From NCBI GenBank assembly GCA_043732185.1, contig JAYTHY010000015.1, forward strand, positions 1-15,990: a DNA stretch of 15,990 bases. The letters are read 5' to 3'. A model generated the notes under the pieces. It did no database searches. It was not told the origin of the DNA and saw only the letters and a list, made by a program, of their open reading frames with translations. The translations under genes were made by a program, and so were the position numbers. Origin of the DNA: Fibrobacteria bacterium. Lineage in GTDB: Bacteria > Fibrobacterota > Fibrobacteria > UBA11236. Positions 1-15,537 of this stretch are shown one piece after another (position 1 is the stretch's first letter; the number at the start of each line of letters is the position of its first letter).

Positions 1-41
1 GCAATAATCAGACCTCATTTGGTCATCCAGTAATCTAGCCC

Positions 42-821
42 TTGATCTCAAGGTGGCTTGCCTCCCCCCTCAAAGTGATGTATTCACCGAACGCTTACAG
101 TTCAACTGCATCCGGTGCTCCTATTCCCCTGCCTTGTTGGGCTTATTTAGCCAAATATTATGGTGTCATAGCTATTGCGATAAAAATGGACACTGCCTAT
201 GGGAAAAAGAATGCGTCACCTAAAACCGATACTGCCTTGGGTCAGCTCTATTTTACTTCGCTTTTGAAGGTGAATCCTAATGCTGAATTGTTCGAACTAG
301 GTGTGCCATTGGGAATTCAAAGTATTTTCGACCAAGTTAAAGAAGACATGGCAATCAACTATTCACCTGATGAGAAATTTACGAGAAGGTTAATTCCTCC
401 TCCGGATTTCAAACCGGCTCCAACAAATCGGGCATTTTTAATGAGAGAGAAATACCATGATCTGCGTAGTTGCCTCTATTTGGCGGCTGACTCGAATTCT
501 CTTGGCTTAATCTTAAAGTCTTTAGTTGGAGAGAAGGATCCTGGATTTTTGTGCATCAGCTCGGAAATTTATATCAGGGTCGGGGCACCATTGTCGAAAG
601 CAAAAAAAATGGTCGAGGAGGCTGAAGAGCACGAGCACGAAAGTGAAATACTTACTCCGGAAAATATTGCTGATTGGACTTTTAGGCTCAGAACGAGAAT
701 TAACAACATGGAGATAAAAACAACGGGTCCTGGCTCAAAGGTTATGCGAACTACTTTTGGAGTCAAGGACGACAAGAAAAAGAAATCTCGCCAATCAAAT
801 ATCGAAAAATCAGGAAAGTAA
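42..821 (+). CDS. Hypothetical protein; start uncertain (TTG 42, ATG 78 or ATG 186)
   Basis: 259-codon ORF with a Lys-rich C-terminus and no recognisable motif. An in-frame TAG at 36-38 closes the frame upstream. Confidence 0.45.
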   Translation: MISRWLASPLKVMYSPNAYSSTASGAPIPLPCWAYLAKYYGVIAIAIKMDTAYGKKNASPKTDTALGQLYFTSLLKVNPNAELFELGVPLGIQSIFDQVKEDMAINYSPDEKFTRRLIPPPDFKPAPTNRAFLMREKYHDLRSCLYLAADSNSLGLILKSLVGEKDPGFLCISSEIYIRVGAPLSKAKKMVEEAEEHEHESEILTPENIADWTFRLRTRINNMEIKTTGPGSKVMRTTFGVKDDKKKKSRQSNIEKSGK

Positions 822-3274: not shown

Positions 3275-3691
3275 TTAAGGAATCGAATGGACCGTAAGCC
3301 CTGCCTTTTTTGCTGCCTTGATCTGATGCAGATCGCTGGAGACGAAGAGATCCGCCTTCCACTCTAAAGCGGCTGAGATGTGGAAAGCATCCATGGCCCG
3401 CAAGGTGTTTTCCTCAAGAAGGTGGATAGATTGAAGTACCGTCGTCTCCGTGATATTGCATAGGACCGCATCCCGTAGATCCTGGGCGATACCCTGTTTG
3501 GCGGCTACGTATTGAGATCCGTTGATTTGCTTTTCCCGACGGAGTCGGCAAAGGGCGGAAATGATTTCCGGATAGCAGATCACCGATAATCCCAGCTCAC
3601 TGGCTTCGTCGCACAGCGCCAGGACCGCATCCGTTCCCTTTTCGGGAACATACCTTTTGACCAACGCCGAAGAGTCGAAGAAGACCTTCAC
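3275..3691 (-). CDS. vapC: VapC family PIN-domain toxin
   Basis: VFFDSSALVKRY...PEIISAL...LRAMDAFHISAAL...FVSSDLHQ carries the PIN acidic residues. The GTG start at 3691 overlaps the antitoxin stop (GTGA). Confidence 0.92.
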   Translation of the reverse strand: MKVFFDSSALVKRYVPEKGTDAVLALCDEASELGLSVICYPEIISALCRLRREKQINGSQYVAAKQGIAQDLRDAVLCNITETTVLQSIHLLEENTLRAMDAFHISAALEWKADLFVSSDLHQIKAAKKAGLTVHSIP

Positions 3692-3918
3692 CTTGTCGCG
3701 TCTTTCCGGTTTTGCAGAATGGCCTTGGACAAGGAGACGCCGCTCAACGGGAGCTGGGGCGGCGCCTTTTTCCAAGAAGGCCTATCCTCAACAAAGACAG
3801 GGCTGATGTCAGCCACGGCTTTCCCGTGTCTCAATATTCGGACCACCTCGCCCTTTTCGACCTCATCCAGGAACTTGGCGGCATGTTTCCGGAACTCGGT
3901 AAAGTTGGCTGTTTTCAT
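3688..3918 (-). CDS. Phd/YefM family antitoxin
   Basis: MKTANFTEFRKHAAKFLDEVEKGEVVRILRHGKAVADISP is a Phd N-terminal domain. SD GAGGA lies upstream. Confidence 0.92.
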   Translation of the reverse strand: MKTANFTEFRKHAAKFLDEVEKGEVVRILRHGKAVADISPVFVEDRPSWKKAPPQLPLSGVSLSKAILQNRKDATR

Positions 3919-4248: not shown

Positions 4249-6405
4249 CTATTCTCGGAAGGTTAATTTAAACGTAGACCCATTTCCTGGAGCGGATTCA
4301 ACTGTCAAGACTCCTCCATATTTCTTCACGATTTCCGTGGCGATGGTCAATCCAAGTCCAGTGCCTTTGCCTGGAGGTTTTGTGGTGTAGAAGGGATTAA
4401 AAATTTTACTGAGGAGGTCTTCCGAGATACCTGGTCCGTAATCCTTGAATGAGAGCACAATATCTCCAAGCACTCTTTTGCCGGTGATTTCAACCTTACC
4501 CTTTTGTTCCATGGCATCAATGGCATTATTGATAATGGCCAAAAAGGCTTGCTCCATCTCATTCTTGTTCACTGTCCAAGTCAAACTATCCGGAATTTCC
4601 ACGGTAATGTGCGTGTCACCGCGTACCTTTTGAGGAATGAGTTCAATAACCTCCGATATCATGGCGGCAAAACTTTCTTGGGCCAGTTTTTCCTTGGCGG
4701 AAGTGCGGGAAAAAACCTTCAAACTGTTTGCGATGCGAGTGCTTTTATCCAAGGCTTTTTGGATTTTTTCAAAAACAAAATCCTTTTCAGCCAGATGTGA
4801 TTCCAAATCGTATTTCTCATCGACCTGCTTAATCAGCTCCGCAATTTCTCCGGACAAGCCACCCTTGGCTGCTAATTCACGAATCCTTTCCAAGCCTTCC
4901 ACATCACGACGGACATCCGGTAGAATATTCACCAAAAAATTTAGTGGGTTGTTGATTTCATGGGCCACTCCTGCGGCCATTTGACCTAAGGATGAAAGTT
5001 TTTCGCTTTGAATCGCCATTTCTTTGGCGGCCATAAGCTGCAATGAAGTCGCTTCCAATTCCTTGGTCCGCTGATCGATTTTTGCTGCCATTTGTTCAAA
5101 AAGGTCCGCCTTAACCAGTGCGTTGGCCACTGAATTGGAGATGGATTGGAATAGGAGTTTGTCCTGATTTTCGAGCTTTTCGCCATTGTGGTATTCAGCA
5201 GCAAGAATACCGAGCGCATTCCCCTCATGGATTAGCGGCGTAATTATGAAAGATGAAATTTTTAAGGCCTTTAGAAAATCGCGAGTGCCTGCGGACACTC
5301 GTGCATAAAGTTCCTCTGGATCATTAATAATCAGAGTCTTTTTTTGTTCCAAGGTCTGGATTAATAAACCATAAGGGTTATCCCAATTTTCCCCCATTTT
5401 AAACCGGGTATTGGCGATAAAGACACGCAAGTCTTCTGGGTAACCTAATGCACTGTGACATGTAAGGTATTCCTTTTTATCGTCCAGAAGCCAAATTTGA
5501 CTGGATCCAAAATGAAAATCACGCACAAGCATGCGCACAACCTTTTCGCAGAGGTCCGTAACACGCACACTATTGTTAAGGACAATCGTAAGCTCTTGTA
5601 GCGAATGAAACTGCTGGTTGGTATTCTCCAACATGCGGTTCTGCTCTGTAAGCCCTTCATTCGATAGCAATGTCCATTCAAGCGACCTGGCTGCTTGTTG
5701 GTGTTTGTATACAGCATATGAACCAATCGCAAAGAACTGGCCTAGGACTGAAATCCAAATCAACCATTGGGGATAATTACCATACCAGGCAAATATGCCT
5801 AAGGCTGAAAAAAGGATGCATAAAATAAAGGCTGATTTTTTTAGGAAAAGGAATCCATATTCCGGAATAGTGACGATATATTCGCAACGTTCTCCGCCGG
5901 TAAATAAACATTGAGGATGCTCCACCTTGGAAAAAGGAAGTCCAAAAAATCGTGAAAAGGCTTCATAGCTTCCAATTCGGTTCTGACACGCGAAAATATT
6001 TTCCTGAAAACCATCCTTGAAAGAAACCTTGACTCGGTATTTGTTCTTCCCAATGGCTTCGCTTTTAACAATGGTCTTCAATGCGACCTTGCCCTCGATT
6101 TGACCCATGAGCTTCATGCAAAGGGCGGGAGAGGTCAATCCAAGCAACAATCCCCCCACCCTACCTAAGCTGTCCACAATCGCTTTCCCTGACTGGTATG
6201 AAATCGCTGGATTTCCGGTTAATCGAACGGCAGTTTCAATCAATTTTTTTCCAAATTCATCCGCCTGAAATCCACCTGAATCGGTAACGGCAAGCCTATC
6301 CGCGCCGATGTTCTCAAGCACCTTTTCCGTAAGCGCCTTTCCATAGCGCTTGTCCAAAAATTGAAGAAAGGAGAACCAAATTTTATTCGAATAGATTTTA
6401 TCCAT
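4249..6405 (-). CDS. Sensor histidine kinase: V4R/HNOB-like domain, 2 TM, GAF, HisKA, HATPase_c
   Basis: H-box AGVAHEINNPL, N-box IINNAIDA, G1 DYGPGI, F-box FNPFYTTK, G2 GKGTGLGL. GAF signature SFIITPLIHEGNALGILAA. V4R-type Cys pattern ACQNRIG...VEHPQCLFTGGERCEY. Two hydrophobic helices at about aa 190-232. Confidence 0.95.
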   Translation of the reverse strand: MDKIYSNKIWFSFLQFLDKRYGKALTEKVLENIGADRLAVTDSGGFQADEFGKKLIETAVRLTGNPAISYQSGKAIVDSLGRVGGLLLGLTSPALCMKLMGQIEGKVALKTIVKSEAIGKNKYRVKVSFKDGFQENIFACQNRIGSYEAFSRFFGLPFSKVEHPQCLFTGGERCEYIVTIPEYGFLFLKKSAFILCILFSALGIFAWYGNYPQWLIWISVLGQFFAIGSYAVYKHQQAARSLEWTLLSNEGLTEQNRMLENTNQQFHSLQELTIVLNNSVRVTDLCEKVVRMLVRDFHFGSSQIWLLDDKKEYLTCHSALGYPEDLRVFIANTRFKMGENWDNPYGLLIQTLEQKKTLIINDPEELYARVSAGTRDFLKALKISSFIITPLIHEGNALGILAAEYHNGEKLENQDKLLFQSISNSVANALVKADLFEQMAAKIDQRTKELEATSLQLMAAKEMAIQSEKLSSLGQMAAGVAHEINNPLNFLVNILPDVRRDVEGLERIRELAAKGGLSGEIAELIKQVDEKYDLESHLAEKDFVFEKIQKALDKSTRIANSLKVFSRTSAKEKLAQESFAAMISEVIELIPQKVRGDTHITVEIPDSLTWTVNKNEMEQAFLAIINNAIDAMEQKGKVEITGKRVLGDIVLSFKDYGPGISEDLLSKIFNPFYTTKPPGKGTGLGLTIATEIVKKYGGVLTVESAPGNGSTFKLTFRE

Positions 6406-6459
6406 GGTTATGAAGTTTAGGAAATAAGGGCTTTTGGAGCTATTGATAAAAACCGGTAT

Positions 6460-6489
6460 TTGACTTATTAGGCTTCCATCCTTTAAGAT
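6460..6489 (+). promoter_or_regulatory. Candidate sigma70 promoter for the GNAT-HDO-GNAT operon
   Basis: TTGACT (6460-6465), 18 nt, TAAGAT (6484-6489), within the 131-bp divergent intergenic region. Confidence 0.45.
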
Positions 6490-6536
6490 TTGGTTGAATT
6501 TTTACTTGAACTTGCGCGGAAAGACGAATACGCCAA

Positions 6537-8078
6537 ATGTCTAATGTCGGCCTTTTTCTTAATCCTGCCGGACTTCCACAGGAATGTTGGCGTCCTGCAC
6601 CAAAAGAAAACCATCGGATTTGTGATCGAATGAACGAGCGGGAAATCGAGCGGATTCCCGTATGGATACAAATTCCGGGTAGTGCCGATTGGCAACCCAT
6701 TCGATTGCGCGACTATTCCTTGCTTGGATTTGGAATCTATTTCAACAGCCACCAGGATCGGGCATTTCCAATTTCTATGCATGATTCCGTTTTACTAAAG
6801 TTTTCGAATTCGAGAAATCAAGAATGTACCGTGCCCTGCGTTGTTCAGAATCTAGGCGATGTTTTCGAAGGACACCGACTTGGTTTAAAACGCTTGGACA
6901 TTTCCACTAGCCTTCAGGGTCCATACTATACTTTTCAAAACAAATTTTTCATGAATCAGCCCAAATCATTGCCTAGCCGAATTTTGAATCCATATTTATT
7001 TGATGAATGGGCTATGGCAGAGTGTATCGGAATAGGACCTGAAAATACTTTACTATTCAGTACCACCGATCATGCCCTGCTTCTCCTTCCCGGGCAATCG
7101 CTTAAGATTTCCATGGAGCTAGCCTCCGCTGCAGATGGTTTATTTGATGGAGTCATTCTTTGGTGTATAAAACAACAAGATGAAAGCATTCATTTTTCCG
7201 TAACGCCAAAAAATATGTCATTTGAAATCAACAATGCCCTAGCTGAGCATATCATTCAGAATTGGGGCCGAAAACCGGAAGAACTCAAAACCTGTGGATT
7301 TCAAATTCGACATTTTAAAAACCAATTGGATTTTTCATTTGTCTCCACACAAGAGGAATACAGCCAAGTATTGATGCTCAGAAGGAATGCGTATGTCCAT
7401 GCGGGAAAATGCGAATCAAAAACGGCTCCTGAACATTTAACGTCGCTCCACGATCCTCACTCTAGAATTCTTGCGGCTCTCCACAATAAGGAAATGGTCG
7501 CGAGTTTAACCATGAATTTTGGAAAGAATGGGACATCCCCTTTCAGATCTGAGGGTGAATTTCCTGGAAATAAATACCCTGTTGCCTTACCCCCTAAAGA
7601 AAAAATGATTGAGGTGTATTCCGCATGCACGCACAAGGACTACCGCGGTGGTGACCTTCTCCACGGCATGATAGAACATACTGTAAGAACGCTTTTACTT
7701 TCCGATCGCGACTGGATTATTACCCTGGTCACTGATGAGCTATGGCTTTTATACCAACGGATGGGATGCAAAAAAGTCGGCGCCTCGGTCCAAATCCGTC
7801 ATTTAAACAATATTGAACACCACCTGATCTTGATACACAGAAATGCCGTCTTATACGGTTCCGGCATGAATATTTTGGACTGGAATTATTTTTACGGCGA
7901 TTTGATGAAAGATATGTTAAAAAAACGGATGGTGCTCATCCCACCATGGAGAAAAATTGGCATGCTTGGCTTGATGGCGTTGTCAGCCTTTTCCACCAAG
8001 TGGCTCGCCAGGAAAAGGGAAAAAGAATTTCAGAAGTACCTGCGGAATCTGAATGAAAAGGAACCCCGAGATGAATGA
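6537..8078 (+). CDS. PilZ-PilZ-GNAT protein (FeeM/LuxI-like N-acyltransferase), paralog A
   Basis: PilZ motif RICDR-x27-DYSLLG, followed by a degenerate second beta-barrel. C-terminal GNAT: LRRNAYV...SRILAALHNKEMVASLT...IEVYSACTHKDYRG...LYQRMGCK. Colinear with 8762-10474. Confidence 0.8.
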   Translation: MSNVGLFLNPAGLPQECWRPAPKENHRICDRMNEREIERIPVWIQIPGSADWQPIRLRDYSLLGFGIYFNSHQDRAFPISMHDSVLLKFSNSRNQECTVPCVVQNLGDVFEGHRLGLKRLDISTSLQGPYYTFQNKFFMNQPKSLPSRILNPYLFDEWAMAECIGIGPENTLLFSTTDHALLLLPGQSLKISMELASAADGLFDGVILWCIKQQDESIHFSVTPKNMSFEINNALAEHIIQNWGRKPEELKTCGFQIRHFKNQLDFSFVSTQEEYSQVLMLRRNAYVHAGKCESKTAPEHLTSLHDPHSRILAALHNKEMVASLTMNFGKNGTSPFRSEGEFPGNKYPVALPPKEKMIEVYSACTHKDYRGGDLLHGMIEHTVRTLLLSDRDWIITLVTDELWLLYQRMGCKKVGASVQIRHLNNIEHHLILIHRNAVLYGSGMNILDWNYFYGDLMKDMLKKRMVLIPPWRKIGMLGLMALSAFSTKWLARKREKEFQKYLRNLNEKEPRDE

Positions 8079-8769
8079 ACGTATCCGTTCGGCTTGGGAA
8101 CAATCCGTTATAGGTTTGCAATCCGGATTATTTTTTAAACGAATGCTTGAAGGAAGCCTGACCCTCACGCATTATAAAGCACTATTACGGGAAACCTATT
8201 ACAATACCAAAGAAAATCCAGAATCCTTTGCCTTGATGGCTGGACATCTAAAAGGGAAAAAGCGCAATATTTCAAAGCAGATTTTCCGACACTGCACGGC
8301 GGAATACGGGCATCATGAAATGGCCTTGGATGATTTGCGTAATTTAGGTGTTGATACTTCTTCAATACCGAGCCACCGGCCATTGCCAACCACGGAGGCA
8401 ATGCTGGCCTTTGCCATATACCACATTCAACATCGCAACCCGCTCACCTATTTGGGCTATGTCTATCATCTCGAAACTCTACCGGCAACTAGCGGTCACG
8501 GTATCATCGCTAGCCTGACTCGGATGGGTGTACCCAAAAATGCCATGTCCTTTATTACTGAACATGCCCATTCTGATGTTGGCCATACCAAATGGCTGGA
8601 GGAGTATTTTGAGGAGGCAATTGAGAACGAAGAGGATCTCGATGCCGTCATCCACGGAGTAAAAGGAACCTGTACGCTCCATGCGGTGATGCTGCAAGGC
8701 ATCCTTGATTCGGTAGAAGAGTCCGAGAAGGTCATCCCCGAATTATTAGGGTCAGCAAATCATGAGTAA
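8071..8769 (+). CDS. Heme-oxygenase-like diiron oxidase/oxygenase (iron-containing redox enzyme; TenA/PqqC/CADD fold)
   Basis: Candidate metal ligands EYGH, YHLE and HAHSDVGH (HxxxDxxH), as in CADD-type HDOs. ATG 8071 follows SD AAGGAA. Overlaps both neighbours by 8 bp. Confidence 0.85.
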   Translation: MNERIRSAWEQSVIGLQSGLFFKRMLEGSLTLTHYKALLRETYYNTKENPESFALMAGHLKGKKRNISKQIFRHCTAEYGHHEMALDDLRNLGVDTSSIPSHRPLPTTEAMLAFAIYHIQHRNPLTYLGYVYHLETLPATSGHGIIASLTRMGVPKNAMSFITEHAHSDVGHTKWLEEYFEEAIENEEDLDAVIHGVKGTCTLHAVMLQGILDSVEESEKVIPELLGSANHE

Positions 8770-10474
8770 GAGATCGCAAATCAAAACGGGGAATCGCAAA
8801 AAACATGCATCCCTGGTTTTGCCTGAAGTTGAGACATGGCAAGATTGGACACCTGTCCCGGCTGCCGAGCGCATCATCCCGGAAACCGGCTTATCACGCT
8901 TTCCCGGCCTCTTCGAACACCGCAGCCAAGACCGCATCTCCCAAAGAGAACTGGGCCTCGTCGCCCTTTCCATCCGCCTCCCCGGAAAGCAGGAATGGCA
9001 AAACGTAAAACTCTGGGACTTCACCTCCATTTCCTTCGGCATCCTTTTCGAAAATCAACCGGAATTCATAAGCTGGGATCCGGAGCCTTCCCTCTCCCCC
9101 GCCAACACCGCCAACCCCGCATCCAATTCCCTCCAAATCCCATTGCAACTCGGCGATGAAATCGAACTGCGCATCAAAGTCACCCACCATCAGGAATTCC
9201 AAATCTGGTGTCAGGTCAAAAATATGCTGCCCTGGAAGGACGGCCTTAAAATCGGCCTGCGCCGCCTAGACATCGGCTTTCCACAGGCCGTGGACACCAA
9301 TCGTCGCGAAGCCTTCCGACTGCCTCTGGCACCGGCTCTCGCCCTCCATGCCCGCATCAAGCACCCCTTTATCTACGGCTATTGGTGCCAGCTCGTTGTC
9401 TCGGATGTCAACCGAAACATGGGCCTCTCTTTTCTAAGTACCGATGCCTCGGTTTTGCTATTCGAGGGCATGGAACTGCAGCTGCATTTTGAATTGGCTG
9501 GCCATCGGGAAAGCCCCATGGTCGTGCGGGTAGCGTGGGTGCATGCTACGGAAGCCAACCATGTCAAGTTTGGCGTGGATTGCCTGGACATGGACTGGCA
9601 ACTGCACAACGGCATCTGCGCCTTTCTCCTTTTCTCCGGACATTGGACCCCGTCCCGCCTGCGCGAAGCTGGTTTCAAATCCCAGCAAGTGAAAAGCCGC
9701 CTCCGCTTTCGCACCGTCAAAACCATGGAGGACTATGCCGAGGTCCTCTACCTGCGCCGCGATGCCTACGTGGGCGCGGGCAAGAAGCCGGATGGGACAA
9801 CTCCCGAGTCCATGGCCGGCCCCTTGGATGGCCTCAGTCGCATCCTTATGACCCACCACCACGGCACTTTGGTAGGCACCATGACATTCACCTACCCCGT
9901 TTCCGAGGAAACTATTCTGGACAGCCAGATGGGATTTCCGGGGCAAAAGTATCCCGTAGCGATTCCGCCCAAAGCCAATCTCATCGAAGTCTCCCGGCTA
10001 TGCATCCATCAGGAATACCGCAATACGGATTTGCTGCAAGGCCTTTTCGAACATGGCATGAAGCATTTTCTCATGTCCGATCGCCACTGGCTTCTGACCT
10101 CGGCCGTTTCCGATCTGCTCCCCACCTACCAGCGCATCGGTTTCAAAAAGCTGAAGGCCAGTTACAAACATCCCGCCCTGAACAATCAAGAACACCACAT
10201 GATCCTGGCCCCGCGCAGCGCGTTCCTATGGGGTAAAGGCATGAACCTGTTGGTCTGGAACACCCTTTTCGGCGACGTGATCGAATACCTGCTCAACCGG
10301 AATCTGGTGACCGTAACCGGCACGGAACGCCTGCTGATTAGAACCAAACTCCTTTTCCGTCCACTGCTGAAACGCTTTTTGGCTACCCGCGCCAACCAAG
10401 CCTTCCGCTTGCATCTGCAGGCCCTGCGACTGGCTGCTCTGCGGGAGCGGCCGAGAAGCGCTGGTACGTTATGA
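8762..10474 (+). CDS. PilZ-PilZ-GNAT protein (FeeM/LuxI-like N-acyltransferase), paralog B
   Basis: RSQDR-x27-DFTSIS and RREAFR-x28-DVNRNMG, plus the PilZ C-terminal strand VRVAWVH...KFGVDC. GNAT: LRRDAYV...LVGTMTF...LIEVSRLCIHQEYRNTDLL...YQRIGFK. Confidence 0.85.
   Translation: MSKRSQIKTGNRKKHASLVLPEVETWQDWTPVPAAERIIPETGLSRFPGLFEHRSQDRISQRELGLVALSIRLPGKQEWQNVKLWDFTSISFGILFENQPEFISWDPEPSLSPANTANPASNSLQIPLQLGDEIELRIKVTHHQEFQIWCQVKNMLPWKDGLKIGLRRLDIGFPQAVDTNRREAFRLPLAPALALHARIKHPFIYGYWCQLVVSDVNRNMGLSFLSTDASVLLFEGMELQLHFELAGHRESPMVVRVAWVHATEANHVKFGVDCLDMDWQLHNGICAFLLFSGHWTPSRLREAGFKSQQVKSRLRFRTVKTMEDYAEVLYLRRDAYVGAGKKPDGTTPESMAGPLDGLSRILMTHHHGTLVGTMTFTYPVSEETILDSQMGFPGQKYPVAIPPKANLIEVSRLCIHQEYRNTDLLQGLFEHGMKHFLMSDRHWLLTSAVSDLLPTYQRIGFKKLKASYKHPALNNQEHHMILAPRSAFLWGKGMNLLVWNTLFGDVIEYLLNRNLVTVTGTERLLIRTKLLFRPLLKRFLATRANQAFRLHLQALRLAALRERPRSAGTL
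10320..10469 (+). repeat. 150-bp direct repeat, copy 1 (3' end of paralog B)
   Basis: 141/150 identical to 11323-11472 by manual alignment. Confidence 0.97.
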
Positions 10475-10486
10475 CAGTATCCAGTT

Positions 10487-10876
10487 TCAATGATTGGAAG
10501 GCATTATTTTTTGAACGACTCTTTTCCCGGGTAGTCCTAATCCTTTAGGTTTGGCATGCTTTCTCTGTCGTAGTTTCGGTTTTTGTCGTATCGTTGCCTC
10601 AACACGGAGTCGGAATCCCATCTCCTGAAAGATCGAAGAAAGGCTCTGCAATTCTGGGTTTCCCTTTTCCGATAGAATCCTGTTTAGATTAACCCTGTGG
10701 AGCTTTGTTTTCCGGGCTAAGGTCTGTATTCCGCCCTGAGCAAGAGCGACGTTCCTCAAGGCGAGCAGAAAAACCCGTGGGTCAGAGTCCTCAAGGGCCG
10801 CGTCAAGATACGCAGCAGCCTGAACGTCATCCTTCAAATCTTCTAGCAAAGCCTGATAATAACTTTTACTTCTCAC
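10487..10876 (-). CDS. Addiction-module antidote protein (HI1420/HigA-like HTH antitoxin)
   Basis: AAAYLDAALEDSDPRVFLLALRNVALAQGGIQTLARKTKLHRVNLNRILSEKGNPELQSL. GTGA overlap with the toxin stop. Confidence 0.92.
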   Translation of the reverse strand: MRSKSYYQALLEDLKDDVQAAAYLDAALEDSDPRVFLLALRNVALAQGGIQTLARKTKLHRVNLNRILSEKGNPELQSLSSIFQEMGFRLRVEATIRQKPKLRQRKHAKPKGLGLPGKRVVQKIMPSNH

Positions 10877-11205
10877 TTATGCTTCTCCTCTAAAAATTTG
10901 AACCAATATTTTCGAGCCATAAGGATGTCCTTTTTCTGTGAGGATTTGTCGCCACCGATTATCAAAAGAACAATCCTGTACGCATCCCTACCGTAATAGA
11001 CCCGGTAACCTGGACCGAAATCAATTTTAAGTTCCCAAAGATTCCCCTTAAGGTCTCGTGAATCTCCGAACAATCCCAGTGCAATTCTATCGATTCTAGT
11101 TCTAACAATTCCCTTCGATTTTACATCTTTGAGCTTGGATAACCAGGCTTCGAATGGACATTCCCCTGAATCAAGCTGCAAAGTTCTAATTTCGTAACGG
11201 ATCAT
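10873..11205 (-). CDS. Addiction-module killer protein (RelE/ParE superfamily, HI1419/HigB-like)
   Basis: PFEAWLSKLKD...RIDRIALGLFGDSRDL...WELKIDFGPGYRVYYG...LLIIGGDKSSQKKDI. Toxin-first gene order. Confidence 0.93.
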   Translation of the reverse strand: MIRYEIRTLQLDSGECPFEAWLSKLKDVKSKGIVRTRIDRIALGLFGDSRDLKGNLWELKIDFGPGYRVYYGRDAYRIVLLIIGGDKSSQKKDILMARKYWFKFLEEKHK

Positions 11206-12498: not shown

Positions 12499-13014
12499 AT
12501 GTCGTTCATAATTATTTCAGAGTCCCTGAAAATTGCCGAAAAAAGACTGCTGGGGAAACCGTCCAAAAACTCTGGCAGGCGTCCACGTTCCGACCGTGGA
12601 AAGATGCGCATTTCCCCGAGACTTGCCGCAAAACTGAACGCGATTCTATCCGAACAGGAAAAGCCGTCCATAAAAAAAATATTGAGCGAGCTTACCGAGT
12701 ATTGCAATAAAAAAAGAGCCAAGCCGCCAGCGCGCGCCACGCTGTATCAATTTATGGCTAAAACTTCAACTGGGAATTATCAGCCGATGTCATTGCCAAT
12801 GGCGGTGCAGGACGCTTTATACAATTTGGACCTGAATGTTCCTGTCCCAGGCCACCAACTGGCCTTTTATTGTTTCAACTACGGGAACCTTGCTGCGATA
12901 AGTTTTGCTTCCGTTCTTCCATGGCTGCCTTTATACCAAGCTGCCAAAATGCGCGGGTATCGTGAAAAAAGCCGTGGCTTGCTTGAGGCCTTACTGCGGG
13001 TACGGGGAATATGA
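12499..13014 (+). CDS. Putative DNA-binding partner/antitoxin of AbiEii with a Mu/TnsB-transposase-like HTH
   Basis: RPRSDRGKMRI...KPSIKKI...YCNKKRAKPPARATLYQF resembles TnsB/Mu DNA-binding domains. No DDE domain follows. ATGA overlap with the AbiEii start. Confidence 0.65.
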   Translation: MSFIIISESLKIAEKRLLGKPSKNSGRRPRSDRGKMRISPRLAAKLNAILSEQEKPSIKKILSELTEYCNKKRAKPPARATLYQFMAKTSTGNYQPMSLPMAVQDALYNLDLNVPVPGHQLAFYCFNYGNLAAISFASVLPWLPLYQAAKMRGYREKSRGLLEALLRVRGI

Positions 13015-13479
13015 ACCCCCTTGCGCCCAGCCGTGTCATTCCTGAACTATTGGCCGAGGCCATTGCGAGTCTCCCGAAATACATCCATTTTTGTTTTGGA
13101 AATGTTGACACCTTTTTCTGAGGAACATCGCCTCACTGTCACCGGGATTCTCGCCACCAAGTTGCACGCAATTGTAGATCGGGGTTTTCGCCGCGATTTC
13201 TTCGATCTATATGTGATGCTTCAGGATCAGAGTCTGGGCATGGCAGATTGTTTAGCAGCCATGCGTGCCGTCCACGCCCAGCCTATCCCCGATCCCTTGC
13301 TTTTGCGTGCTCTGACTTATTTTGACGATGCGGATCGGGAAGCCCCACTCCCCAATGAAGGAAAAAAAGATTGGGAAACGGTGAAGGATTATTTCTTGAC
13401 CCGTATCGGACATTTATTGATTCCTCCTGCCCGGAAACTTGCCATCCAATCCCAGCGTATCGATGTGAAACCTGGATAA
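13011..13479 (+). pseudogene. AbiEii/AbiGii nucleotidyltransferase toxin, internally deleted and frameshifted
   Basis: The ATG 13011 frame stops at 13119-13121. A second frame carries the AbiEii C-terminal half (ILATKLHAIVDRGFRRDFFDLY...LLRALTYFDDAD...WETVKDYF). The N-terminal GGT...HRxSxDxD motif is absent. Confidence 0.85.
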
Positions 13480-13575
13480 ACAGGGCTTAAACCCTGACCT
13501 TAACTTCCGCCCCCCTTTTTGGTACGTTTACCGCCGTACCCCCCATTCAAGCGCTTATTCTCGCAAGGAAGTCCC

Positions 13576-15537
13576 GTGGCCGATAATGTTCTCACCGTCC
13601 AAAACCTGCATAAAGCCTGGGGTGAAAAAGTCCTTTTTGGAGGCCTGTCCTTTGGCATCGATCGCGGCCAAAAAGTAGCGCTGCTTGGCCTGAACGGCAG
13701 CGGCAAATCCACATTACTCCGCATCCTGGCAGGACGGGAAACGGATTTTGAAGGGGCCATCACTCGCCGTTCAAATTTCATCGACCGATACTTAGACCAA
13801 GCGGTGAAAGTAGTGCCGGCTGGTGACCCAACTTTGGTGCTGGGCGATTTAATCGCCGGCCGCACGGTGGCGGATGAAGTTTTTGCGCCCCAAGGACCGA
13901 TTGGAATTTTGTTGGCGCGCTATGTTATGGTGCTGCATGAAATGGGATTGCCGGAGCATGCGACCTTAAGCGAAGCGGCCACCGATCAGGCTCATGCGGA
14001 ACTGTCGCATTTAAATGACGCCATTGAGCGCGACCACGGTTGGGACCTGTATGGGCAGGTGCAGGCTTTGGCCGGACAGCTTGATTTGGATCTCACCTGG
14101 ACAATCGAAACAACCCTTTCCGGCGGACAGCTTAAAAAGATCCAATTGATTCGCGCCCTGGCCGGTACGCCGGACTTGCTACTGCTCGATGAGCCTACCA
14201 ACCATCTCGATGAAAGCGCCATCCGTTGGCTGGAAACGAAGCTGGCTACGTATCCCGGCACCATGATCGTGGTGACCCATGATCGTTATTTTCTGGAGAA
14301 TGCCGTCGATCATATACTGGAACTTTGGAACGGCGATATCCGATCCTTTCCCGGCAACTACGGCAAATATCTGGAGAAGCGGGCCGAACTGGAAGCCAAC
14401 CTGACCGTTACGGAAGGCAAGCGCATGGCCTTTCTCAAGGAAGAAATCCATTGGATCCGCCGTGGGCCCAAAGCGCGCGGCACCAAGGCCAAGGCCCGTA
14501 TCCAGCGCTTTGAAGACGCACGCGATCAAAAAGGGTATGCCGCCGATAAAATCATGGACCTCGATTTGGATTCCTCCGCGCGGCTGGGGAAAACCATTCT
14601 GGAAATCACGGGTCTGTGCAAGGCCTACGGCGATCGCACACTTTTCAGGAACCTGGACTTGAGCCTGCTCCCCGGCGACCGCATCGGAATTCTGGGCCCC
14701 AACGGTTCCGGCAAAACCACCTTTTTAAAAATCTTGCTGGGAAAACTACAGGCCGATTCCGGTGAGATAAAATTGGGCGTCAATACCTTGACTGCCTATT
14801 TCGATCAGAAACGCGAAAGCCTGGATCCGGAAAAAACCGTATGGCATACCTTGGGCGGTGATACCGAGTACGTGGAATTCGGCGGGACAAAAGTGCCCAA
14901 GCGCACCTTTCTCGAAAACTTCCTATTCCCCGCCCGCATGCATTTCTCCAAGGCTGGACGCCTTAGCGGCGGAGAGCAAAACCGTCTGCAACTGGCCATG
15001 GCATTAGTCGCCAACCCCGCCAACCTGCTGATTCTGGACGAACCCACCAACGACCTGGACATCGCCACGTTGCAAGTTCTAGAGCGCGCCCTGTCCGAAT
15101 TCCCTGGCTGCGCGATTGTAGTCAGCCACGATCGATTCTTTTTGGATCAGGTCGCCAACTCCATGCTCATCTTCAGCAAGAGCGGCAAGGTGCGCCAGCT
15201 GCAAGGCAATTACAGCGACTATCTGGACTCGGAAGCGGAAGACGAAAAAGCCGCGGCGGATGCGGCGGCAGCAGCCAAGGTTATCGTGGAGCAAACTAAA
15301 AAACGTCCGGGTTTGTCCCATCAGGAAAAAAAAGAATGGGAAACCATGGAAGCCAAAATTGCGGAAACGGAAAAAGCCGTGGAAGCTGCGGAAGCGGCAC
15401 TGGCAGTGGCCTCCAGCGCGGGAAAATTTATTGAAGTGCAAGAAGCGAATGTGCGGTATGAGGGATTAAAGAAAACGGTGGAGACTTTATTCGCTCGCTG
15501 GGAATGGCTGGATGCAAAACAAAGTGGGAAGAACTAG
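13576..15537 (+). CDS. uup: ABC-F family ATP-binding protein, Uup-like
   Basis: Two ABC cassettes (GLNGSGKST/LSGGQ/LLLLDEPTNHLD and GPNGSGKTT/LSGGE/LLILDEPTNDLD), linker WIRRGPKARGTKAKARI, and C-terminal coiled coil LSHQEKKEW...RWEWL. No TM. GTG 13576 follows SD AAGGAAG. Confidence 0.9.
   Translation: MADNVLTVQNLHKAWGEKVLFGGLSFGIDRGQKVALLGLNGSGKSTLLRILAGRETDFEGAITRRSNFIDRYLDQAVKVVPAGDPTLVLGDLIAGRTVADEVFAPQGPIGILLARYVMVLHEMGLPEHATLSEAATDQAHAELSHLNDAIERDHGWDLYGQVQALAGQLDLDLTWTIETTLSGGQLKKIQLIRALAGTPDLLLLDEPTNHLDESAIRWLETKLATYPGTMIVVTHDRYFLENAVDHILELWNGDIRSFPGNYGKYLEKRAELEANLTVTEGKRMAFLKEEIHWIRRGPKARGTKAKARIQRFEDARDQKGYAADKIMDLDLDSSARLGKTILEITGLCKAYGDRTLFRNLDLSLLPGDRIGILGPNGSGKTTFLKILLGKLQADSGEIKLGVNTLTAYFDQKRESLDPEKTVWHTLGGDTEYVEFGGTKVPKRTFLENFLFPARMHFSKAGRLSGGEQNRLQLAMALVANPANLLILDEPTNDLDIATLQVLERALSEFPGCAIVVSHDRFFLDQVANSMLIFSKSGKVRQLQGNYSDYLDSEAEDEKAAADAAAAAKVIVEQTKKRPGLSHQEKKEWETMEAKIAETEKAVEAAEAALAVASSAGKFIEVQEANVRYEGLKKTVETLFARWEWLDAKQSGKN

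Follow-up and report, generated by a model that had tools for sequence, protein, structure and literature searches.

Contig JAYTHY010000015.1 of a Fibrobacteria bacterium (GenBank assembly GCA_043732185.1, a 4.46-Mb genome in 139 contigs) was analysed over its whole length of 15,990 bp, hereafter called the window (contig C15). It carries a gene for a sensor histidine kinase (HK) transcribed divergently from an overlapping trio of genes, which encode two acyltransferases, GNAT A and GNAT B, and between them a putative heme-oxygenase-like diiron oxidase (HDO). The four genes recur together in related genomes, and the group may make and sense a lipid-like small molecule.

Organization of the locus

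An initial annotation of this DNA had described four intact genes, 8-bp overlaps within the trio and a 131-bp divergent intergenic region, all of which are confirmed (Table 1), the four reading frames being open. The A/HDO junction reads ATGAATGA, with the ATG of HDO at 8071 and the stop codon of A at 8076-8078, and the HDO/B junction reads ATGAGTAA, with the ATG of B at 8762 and the stop codon of HDO at 8767-8769. For HDO, the start at 8071 agrees with the homologue alignment. A scan of the intergenic region proposed sigma-70-like promoter boxes, TTGACT and TAAGAT spaced by 18 nt (6460-6489), upstream of GNAT A, the count of such sites in the region being no higher than in shuffles. Similar boxes (TTGAC/TTGC, about 17 nt, TAnAAT), read by eye, precede A at most of the 16 loci sharing the layout described below.

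Table 1. Features of the HK/A-HDO-B locus in the 15,990-bp window
Feature	Position	Strand	Description and basis
Sensor histidine kinase (HK)	4249..6405	-	718 aa; open reading frame; predicted heme-less H-NOX-fold sensor, two membrane helices, GAF, DHp and catalytic domain
Two predicted membrane helices (~aa 186-235), sensor to GAF	5701..5850	-	Model helices 186-208 and 214-249; hydrophobic sequence
Replaced block versus closest relative	5777..8176	.	Kinase sensor domain, promoter region, GNAT A, first ~35 HDO codons
Kinase N-terminal sensor domain (aa 1-185)	5851..6405	-	Model, Foldseek, Pfam in relatives; predicted cytoplasmic
Divergent intergenic region	6406..6536	.	131 bp; sigma-70-like promoter for the A-HDO-B operon
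GNAT A	6537..8078	+	513 aa; open reading frame; PilZ, second degenerate PilZ-like barrel, FeeM-like N-acyltransferase, C-terminal helices (predicted)
HDO	8071..8769	+	232 aa from ATG 8071; alternative upstream ATG 8053
GNAT B	8762..10474	+	570 aa; PilZ-PilZ-GNAT plan as in GNAT A

PilZ-GNAT acyltransferases

GNAT A and GNAT B are paralogues with 31% identity over their full length. Both match the Pfam family FeeM above its cut-off of 27 bits (33.2 bits in A, 36.9 bits in B) and are predicted to have a FeeM-like GNAT fold. Among the 43 members of the A/B family, FeeM is found in 33 and PilZ in 19 (best E 1.7e-11). A LuxI-type acyl-homoserine lactone (AHL) synthase identity (PF00765) was rejected, as Autoind_synth matches 0/43 members at E 0.01 or better.

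The AlphaFold2 (AF2) model of GNAT A (43-row alignment, mean pLDDT 85.6) comprises two barrels at about residues 40-120 and 145-225, the GNAT domain at about 262-445 and three C-terminal helices (446-507). With the N-terminal half as Foldseek query, the best match is the two-domain cyclic di-GMP (c-di-GMP) receptor MotI/DgrA (5vx6, E 3.3e-8), followed by PP4397 (3kyf) and MrkH. The c-di-GMP receptor signature of PilZ (PF07238) consists of RxxxR and, some 20-30 residues on, [D/N]xSxxG. In barrel 1 of GNAT A, RxxxR stands at R27/R31 and DYSLLG at 59-64 (D59-G64). Throughout the A-type proteins, RxxxR precedes barrel 1 in 28/28 and [DN]xSxxG occurs in 24/28, with RxxxR before barrel 2 in only 5/28. 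B-type proteins carry RxxxR before both barrels (15/15), the canonical second motif in 4/15 and a relaxed form in 14/15, mostly DFTSISFG. Pfam PilZ remains below its cut-off of 22.5 bits in the window's A (20.2 bits) and is absent in B; the assignment is nevertheless retained for both proteins because of the PilZ matches in the family, the fold and the motifs. Each N-terminal half is thus predicted to form two PilZ-type barrels, as initially claimed, albeit with degenerate second motifs in B.

E359, at the start of a strand, is invariant in 43/43 members. The range alignment (262..445 of A versus 3..185 of FeeM) puts it near FeeM residue 95-100, a correspondence between aligned ranges and not between individual residues. 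The catalytic Glu is Glu95 in FeeM and Glu103 in Nas354 (PMC4897644). A profile search of PDB sequences with the A/B alignment did not reach FeeM and met the PilZ domain of Alg44 at E 1.3-2 only. Homologue searches gave at least 15 matches for GNAT A and at least 14, none new, for the A/B profile; being lower bounds, these figures are no sign of rarity. Elsewhere in the window's genome, a 309-aa open frame contains a third, weak FeeM-like match (G000:C74:21107-21553; 20.4 bits against a cut-off of 27). The same genome contains eight GGDEF matches.

Fusions between a synthase of N-acyl amino acids (NAS) and PilZ are already known, as is the PilZ-PilZ-GNAT architecture (PMC4897644, PMC8316039). 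The metagenomic NAS-PilZ proteins Nas343 and Nas354 (Thies et al. 2016) yield N-acyltyrosines in E. coli and require the catalytic Glu (PMC4897644). Likened to A and B by description, not by sequence, they carry an N-terminal NAS and a single C-terminal PilZ, the reverse of the PilZ-PilZ-NAS order of A and B. Their genes are presumed by the authors to lie outside a biosynthetic operon, and the accessible text mentions no HDO, paralogue pair or sensor kinase (PMC4897644). FeeM (2g0b) and the LuxI-type synthases (LasI 1ro5, RpaI 6wn0, BjaI 5w8a, TofI 3p2h) share about 9-13% identity with A/B and lack their N-terminal PilZ pairs and C-terminal helices of about 60 residues.

PixB of Myxococcus xanthus (Kuzmich et al. 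2021) binds c-di-GMP in vitro, with phenotypes in motility reversals and development (PMC8316039). Compared by description only, it is like GNAT B in its PilZ-PilZ-GNAT order, in RxxxR in both PilZ domains and in a second motif without Ser; unlike for the window module, no HDO or H-NOX-like kinase partner is mentioned in the accessible text (PMC8316039). A and B could accordingly act as PixB may do, as c-di-GMP-responsive acyl- or acetyltransferases modifying a protein or another macromolecule, with a separate role for HDO. The motif pattern of the B-type proteins is shared with PixB, and GNAT substrates are not readable from sequence, as the PixB report also states (PMC8316039). However, FeeM matches above cut-off in both A and B, and the translational coupling of HDO together with the recurrence of stand-alone FeeM-like GNAT/HDO pairs (see below) points to small-molecule chemistry, which makes a PixB-like role improbable.

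The diiron oxidase

HDO matches Haem_oxygenas_2 (PF14518) with 73.1 bits against a cut-off of 28.9, and its residues E78, H81, E135, H165, D169 and H172 are invariant in 16/16 aligned homologues. Going by the motifs of the family, we take these six columns to be the 3-His/3-carboxylate diiron ligands. The protein can thus be classified, from its sequence, as a heme-oxygenase-like diiron oxidase keeping all six ligands, in agreement with the initial annotation. UndA, BesC, SznF, CADD and MboA share the same Pfam family and ligand set, and the chemistry of HDOs includes decarboxylation, desaturation and N-oxygenation. Characterised HDOs are remote from that of the window (MboA E 1e-3, BesC E 0.08), its nearest solved chain being 3dde, an uncharacterised structural-genomics protein (E 4e-23). 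A complex prediction for GNAT A with HDO (score 0.00, mark 0.32) gave no call either way. In the literature searched, no HDO was found described as working with an N-acyl synthase, and the terms acyltransferase, GNAT and N-acyl are absent from the accessible text of a 2026 HDO review (PMC13108848).

The kinase and its sensor domain

In HK, Pfam identifies GAF (residues 283-430), HATPase_c (615-717, 82.7 bits) and, below cut-off, the HisKA H-box (473-491, 18.9 bits). Many NCBIfam kinase models match its C-terminal half, and the protein has the features of a HisKA-type histidine kinase. A library-wide profile search that included full-length P0031 (862 positions) gave 1.7 million matches, which reflect the generic kinase core; among the 150 matches listed in that search, five (P0032, P0033, P0049, P0056, P0060) start at profile position 2-3. 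The stretch of the two predicted membrane helices is the least conserved part of HK (mean pairwise identity 25%). Because both helices stand between the sensor and the GAF/kinase core, both are inferred to share one side of the membrane, the cytoplasmic one.

The sensor had been described as a V4R domain. In the AF2 model of HK residues 1-250 (pLDDT 85.1), it gives 38 Foldseek matches at E 0.001 or better, nearly all of them H-NOX chains: Nostoc 6mx5 has the lowest E (3.9e-6, TMt 0.70), and TMt reaches 0.75 for Nostoc 2o09 and 0.73 for S. oneidensis 4u99. The V4R-type sensors DmpR (6iy8, E 1e-3) and MopR (5kbe, E 2.7e-3) come well below these, with TMt of 0.22-0.43. The window's own domain matches neither V4R (PF02830) nor Arabinose_bd in Pfam. 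Among 19 orthologous sensor domains, Arabinose_bd (PF12625) is found in 13 (best E 3.2e-7), HNOB in one (E 0.031) and V4R in one (E 0.046). Of the V4R-GAF kinase described initially, GAF and HATPase_c are therefore found and the V4R part gives way to a fold nearer H-NOX; V4R sensors of the XylR/DmpR type and H-NOX are presumably members of one superfamily. A homologue search with the sensor region returned 12 matches.

The YxSxR heme propionate motif occurs in 0/19 sensors and residues 1-185 hold no conserved His other than H163; without YxSxR and without a conserved proximal His, the domain is called a heme-less H-NOX-fold sensor. Membership of the H-NOX family (PF07700) was rejected, as the fold is shared and the heme ligation is not. 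C140, H163, C166 and C174 are invariant in 19/19 sensors, and the stretch 160-185 aligns position by position with residues 158-183 of the S. oneidensis H-NOX. In a profile search of PDB sequences with the sensor alignment, only this C-terminal stretch met H-NOX (E 0.31). The zinc ligands of the S. oneidensis protein are Cys139, His161, Cys164 and Cys172, and the heme-free V. cholerae H-NOX senses oxidation at its zinc site and controls its kinase (PMC7108781). The window sensor is like H-NOX/HnoK (PMC7108781) in its fold (TMt 0.70-0.76 across some 187 columns), in how its Cys3His residues are arranged and spaced, and in controlling a histidine kinase. It differs in that H-NOX is a stand-alone protein, whereas the window sensor is fused to its kinase via two membrane helices, is not expected to bind heme and is nearer to Arabinose_bd than to HNOB by Pfam.

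The match between C140/H163/C166/C174 and these zinc ligands favours the main rival to a make-and-sense module: the operon would produce, at high c-di-GMP, a lipoamino acid that is surface-active or belongs to the membrane (an antibiotic, a biosurfactant or a lipid of the envelope) as an output and not as a signal, and the kinase would sense something else, most likely oxidants through the Cys3His zinc site, as in V. cholerae, or the state of the membrane. Indeed, the products of Nas343 and Nas354 are biosurfactants with antibiotic activity (PMC4897644). HDO needs O2, so that a redox or oxygen cue would make sense, and the conserved strong promoter fits control at the protein level. The evolution of the sensor, described in the next sections, argues otherwise.

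Conservation among relatives

GNAT A was searched for in 40 relatives and the window's own genome (41 genomes, E 0.001 or better). It is matched in 23/41, among them 14/14 of the same genus and 0/5 of genus g4. Strong full-length matches are found in 21 genomes; those in G032 and G034 are weak and cover the PilZ part only. HK followed by the divergent A-HDO-B set on one contig is present in 16 of the 21 genomes with the full-length family, as read from match coordinates and reading-frame maps of the loci (for G011 from coordinates alone; 15/20 without it). Because the layout recurs to this extent, the four-gene arrangement is more than chance, and the co-conservation expected in the initial annotation is found. 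The five other genomes comprise G002 and G004, where the locus is cut by contig ends, and three that deviate: G006, with a locus split over three contigs and HDO not found, G007, with two kinases, three GNATs and no HDO, and G026, with two GNATs only.

In a sample of 251 genomes of the phylum, the full-length family is confined to family f1 outside g4 (18/28) and to f3 (1/1). In the sister family f4, 7/10 genomes encode proteins matching the PilZ-PilZ part only. Those of its genus g14 (G032, G034, G036, G214, G236, G240, G249) are 450-690 aa long and cover profile positions of about 36-290; presumably, they carry a different C-terminal domain.

Several neighbours recur at the relatives' loci: an ABC-F gene in 10 of them, a gene 'X' of about 380 aa following the kinase in six, a gene for a 223-aa protein that ends in a receiver domain in six and, following B, a class III cyclase gene in four. 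The window has toxin-antitoxin genes in place of the response regulator, 'X' and cyclase neighbours, and 'X' is located on a different contig of the genome, without signalling neighbours. The receiver protein, a candidate partner regulator of unusual domain order, is encoded at L013 15461-16132, L017 9501-10172 and 10270-11004, L023 5640-6311, L018 15278-15979 and L043 6161-6862. It stands near the kinase in six relatives' loci and also adjoins a second HDO-GNAT pair.

The 16 canonical layouts all belong to a single family-level clade, and an unrelated, housekeeping-type gene, that of ABC-F, is syntenic in 10 loci as well. Both facts would fit four genes that are neighbours only by shared descent, without a functional link. 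This reading is already disfavoured and very improbable, as the core is kept amid changing flanks, the genes have 8-bp overlaps, and GNAT-HDO-sensor sets recur on unrelated contigs with other gene orders and outputs.

Two kinds of variation were seen within the module itself. In G013 (L015 8873-18867, G013:C61), a class III cyclase gene (13041-14741) separates two complete tandem A-HDO-B sets that differ in A/HDO type, and a second sensor kinase adjoins the first (4479-6674). Kinase gene fragments stand beside A-HDO-B sets at L028 12964-13518 (kinase residues 418-588) and L023 12527-13851 (residues 1-68 and 358-716 in three reading frames); judging from these remnants, kinase copies appear to decay in some loci.

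A replaced block and co-variation of its parts

Along the locus, identity to the closest relative, L012, is 90-99%, whereas the coding parts of about 5777-8176 reach only 58-81%; the edge bin 5777-5926 is 87% identical and the intergenic bin inside the block 91%. Synonymous divergence (dS) from L012 is 0.98-2.7 inside the block, saturated in the tail of A, versus 0.09-0.29 outside. Positive selection in situ was rejected as the origin of the divergent block, with the ratio of non-synonymous to synonymous divergence (dN/dS) at 0.08-0.30 in the same comparison and synonymous sites near saturation. The block is a replacement by a long-diverged allele and not the result of recent positive selection. 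In a second pair, L024/L021, synonymous sites are saturated across HK and A, with dS of 0.8-0.96 in HDO and B.

GNAT A is the fastest-evolving part of the module and GNAT B the slowest, the GNAT part of B being 64-98% identical to that of relatives. In a quick A/B tree, with SH-aLRT support only, B forms one short-branched clade (SH-aLRT 93) and A splits into three or more deep clades, two of which occur in a single genus. Over 15 loci and with B as the control variable, A shows a partial Mantel correlation with HDO (r 0.71) and with the sensor (0.63), and HDO with the sensor (0.49), but A shows none with GAF (0.09) or DHp-CA (-0.01). B, for its part, tracks GAF (0.71) and DHp-CA (0.74). The sensor therefore co-varies with A and HDO and not with the rest of its own kinase.

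This co-variation and the joint replacement of sensor and A speak against a kinase that senses oxidants or membrane state independently of an output lipid.

HDO homologues outside the four-gene layout

A scan of genome and metagenome collections for the HDO pattern returned 29 loci, 11 of them without the canonical layout (L037, L043, L045, L046, L059-L065). A GNAT adjoins HDO in seven of the 11, as PilZ-FeeM fusions (L045, L060), as stand-alone FeeM/Acetyltransf_5 proteins (L061, L063, L064) or as weaker Acetyltransf_1 matches (L037, L043). A signalling protein also adjoins HDO in 7/11, and five of these proteins (L045, L060, L063, L064, L065) combine a homologous sensor domain with another output. 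Those of L045 and L060 are sensor-GAF-HisKA-HATPase-REC-cyclase proteins of 1156-1159 aa, those of L063 and L064 sensor-class III cyclases of 521-571 aa, and that of L065 is a cut sensor protein; L037 and L043 have a short kinase plus a receiver protein. The distant sensor domains were recognised by the sensor hidden Markov model (E 1e-8 to 8e-7) and partly by Arabinose_bd (below cut-off in L063 and L064, E 6e-4 and 3e-4) and are followed by hydrophobic segments. In the order to which the genome of L045 belongs, HDO was found in 1/34 genomes, and this occurrence is apparently sporadic or due to a mis-binned contig. On unrelated contigs, large STAND NTPase-TPR proteins ending in Trans_reg_C are encoded near distant HDO homologues (L046 3000-6290, L063 9744-12731).

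All four zinc ligands are missing from the five distant sensors, yet their linkage to HDO is kept. This weakens the case for an output lipid beside an oxidant-sensing kinase; though still the main rival, it is rather unlikely overall.

In L065, a fatty acid desaturase gene (1536-2540) directly follows the distant HDO homologue, which is itself divergent from the gene of the sensor-domain protein. This neighbour hints at a pathway that handles acyl chains. It would also suit a sensor of the substrate or precursor (fatty acid, acyl carrier or amine), the module being a feed-forward catabolic or detoxifying circuit. Such a circuit fits the same co-conservation and co-variation data, and the fold family binds hydrophobic ligands (DmpR and MopR bind phenols); the fold matches also include a palmitoylated TRAPP subunit (6aq3). 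On the other hand, the FeeM and AHL-synthase relatives are biosynthetic, and the module has no conserved gene for transport or degradation; the chances of a catabolic circuit are accordingly slim.

A possible make-and-sense module

Taken together, the data are best accounted for by a module that makes and senses a lipid-like small molecule, possibly an oxidised N-acyl lipid, to which we assign a probability of about 0.4, every biochemical step being inferred. Three observations lead to it: the four-gene core persists while flanks change, the sensor, A and HDO are jointly replaced and co-vary, and homologous sensors with other outputs recur beside GNAT-HDO pairs. GNAT A and GNAT B would be long-chain N-acyltransferases of the FeeM type, their activity probably gated by c-di-GMP bound at the N-terminal PilZ pair fused to them. 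Oxidative tailoring of the N-acyl product or its amine substrate would fall to the translationally coupled HDO. Through its heme-less H-NOX-fold domain, the divergent membrane kinase may then perceive the product, or a close precursor of it, within the cytoplasm or on the inner side of the membrane, and relay the signal via GAF, DHp and catalytic domain to a response regulator. Specificity would lie with GNAT A, HDO and the sensor domain, which would be exchanged as a cassette, whereas GNAT B and the kinase core would be constant.

The initially noticed arrangement thus holds and is partly confirmed, and its interpretation is partly supported. The idea of a synthase and its receptor gains from the replacement of the sensor together with GNAT A between close relatives and from the co-variation of the sensor with A and HDO, but the proposed receptor is not clearly a V4R domain.

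Several points weigh against a make-and-sense function. The GNAT domain is only about 9% identical to FeeM, so that the substrates of A and B cannot be read from sequence, and the invariant Cys3His site suggests another, redox, input for the window kinase. Sensor and GNAT A are physically adjacent, and linkage alone can make both recombine and co-vary; moreover, the loci are kin and their segments linked, so that Mantel p-values overstate. Only two locus pairs are informative for dS, two others being saturated throughout. Among the 11 non-canonical loci, four lack an adjacent GNAT and four an adjacent signalling protein, two of each four being short contigs (L062 and L065; L061 and L062, respectively). 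L046 and L059 have neither beside HDO, and L062 is too short to judge. With the relatives' response regulator as query, no ortholog was found in the window's genome, only generic receiver matches of 25-36% identity. Reading the intergenic sequences by eye, with no repeat-finding tool run, revealed no conserved repeat marking a regulator site and only the promoter boxes in common; feedback on the near-consensus, conserved A-HDO-B promoter is thus unsupported.

Polymorphic signal/receptor loci are exemplified by agr and comQXP, and LuxM/LuxN pairs an AHL synthase with a membrane kinase receptor. The window module resembles these systems only in that synthase and sensor part diverge together while the kinase core is constant; enzyme families, sensor fold and chemistry differ. 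A broader proposal is more doubtful: FeeM-type acyltransferase, HDO and heme-less H-NOX-fold sensor might constitute a widespread class of lipid signalling, with the sensor plugged into kinase or cAMP/cGMP cyclase outputs. In Fibrobacteria-type systems, the synthases would also be c-di-GMP-gated, and a polymorphic A/HDO/sensor cassette exchanged between lineages would provide pherotype-like, strain-specific signals.

The initial statement that no characterised system has such an architecture has to be narrowed in view of the NAS-PilZ and PixB precedents (PMC4897644, PMC8316039). It holds for the pairing of a NAS or GNAT with HDO, the dedicated H-NOX-fold sensor and the cassette behaviour, no description of which was found in the literature searched, which included few subscription journals. 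If the make-and-sense module is real, its product, an oxidised N-acyl amide, would be a bacterial signal of a new chemical class, whose enzymes are akin to AHL synthases yet distinct from them, and its receptor would be of a new type, in which an H-NOX fold without heme is used for a lipid. Signal production would be tied directly to c-di-GMP, a large uncharacterised HDO branch and heme-less H-NOX-like domains would gain a first function, and the exchange of synthase/sensor cassettes would be a rare case of signal-type diversification outside Firmicutes. Even if the lipid were no more than a surfactant or envelope lipid, two c-di-GMP-gated lipoamino-acid synthases joined by a diiron tailoring enzyme would still be a new biosynthetic route.

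Flanking genes and base composition

The flanks of the module consist mostly of toxin-antitoxin-type genes (PIN, HigA/Gp49-like, HTH), with a DUF4143 ATPase and an ABC-F protein. The decayed surroundings described initially are thus found only in part: a DUF4143 piece (1881-2138) and a C-terminal AbiEii piece (13021-13479) are gene fragments, whereas toxin-antitoxin and ABC-F genes look intact. Toxin-antitoxin-type stretches around the module lie at 1205-1645, 3275-3775, 10487-11205 and 12499-13479 and include an HTH protein, a PIN protein, a HigA-like/Gp49-like pair and the AbiEii piece. The latter spans only profile positions 137-221 of 238 and is preceded by a 171-aa open reading frame without a Pfam family. 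In L012, an intact AbiEii/DUF6088 pair follows the kinase (L012 10026-11675).

Base composition varies along the module, in keeping with a mosaic locus. The GC content is 49.2% for the genome, 43.7% for HK, 43.1% for A, about 46% for HDO and 56.1% for B (68% at third codon positions). HK and A belong to the lowest 3% or so of the genome's 2-kb windows by GC, and B exceeds the 99th percentile. L012 shares this split and L021 and L024 show a similar one; the other 11 loci do not.

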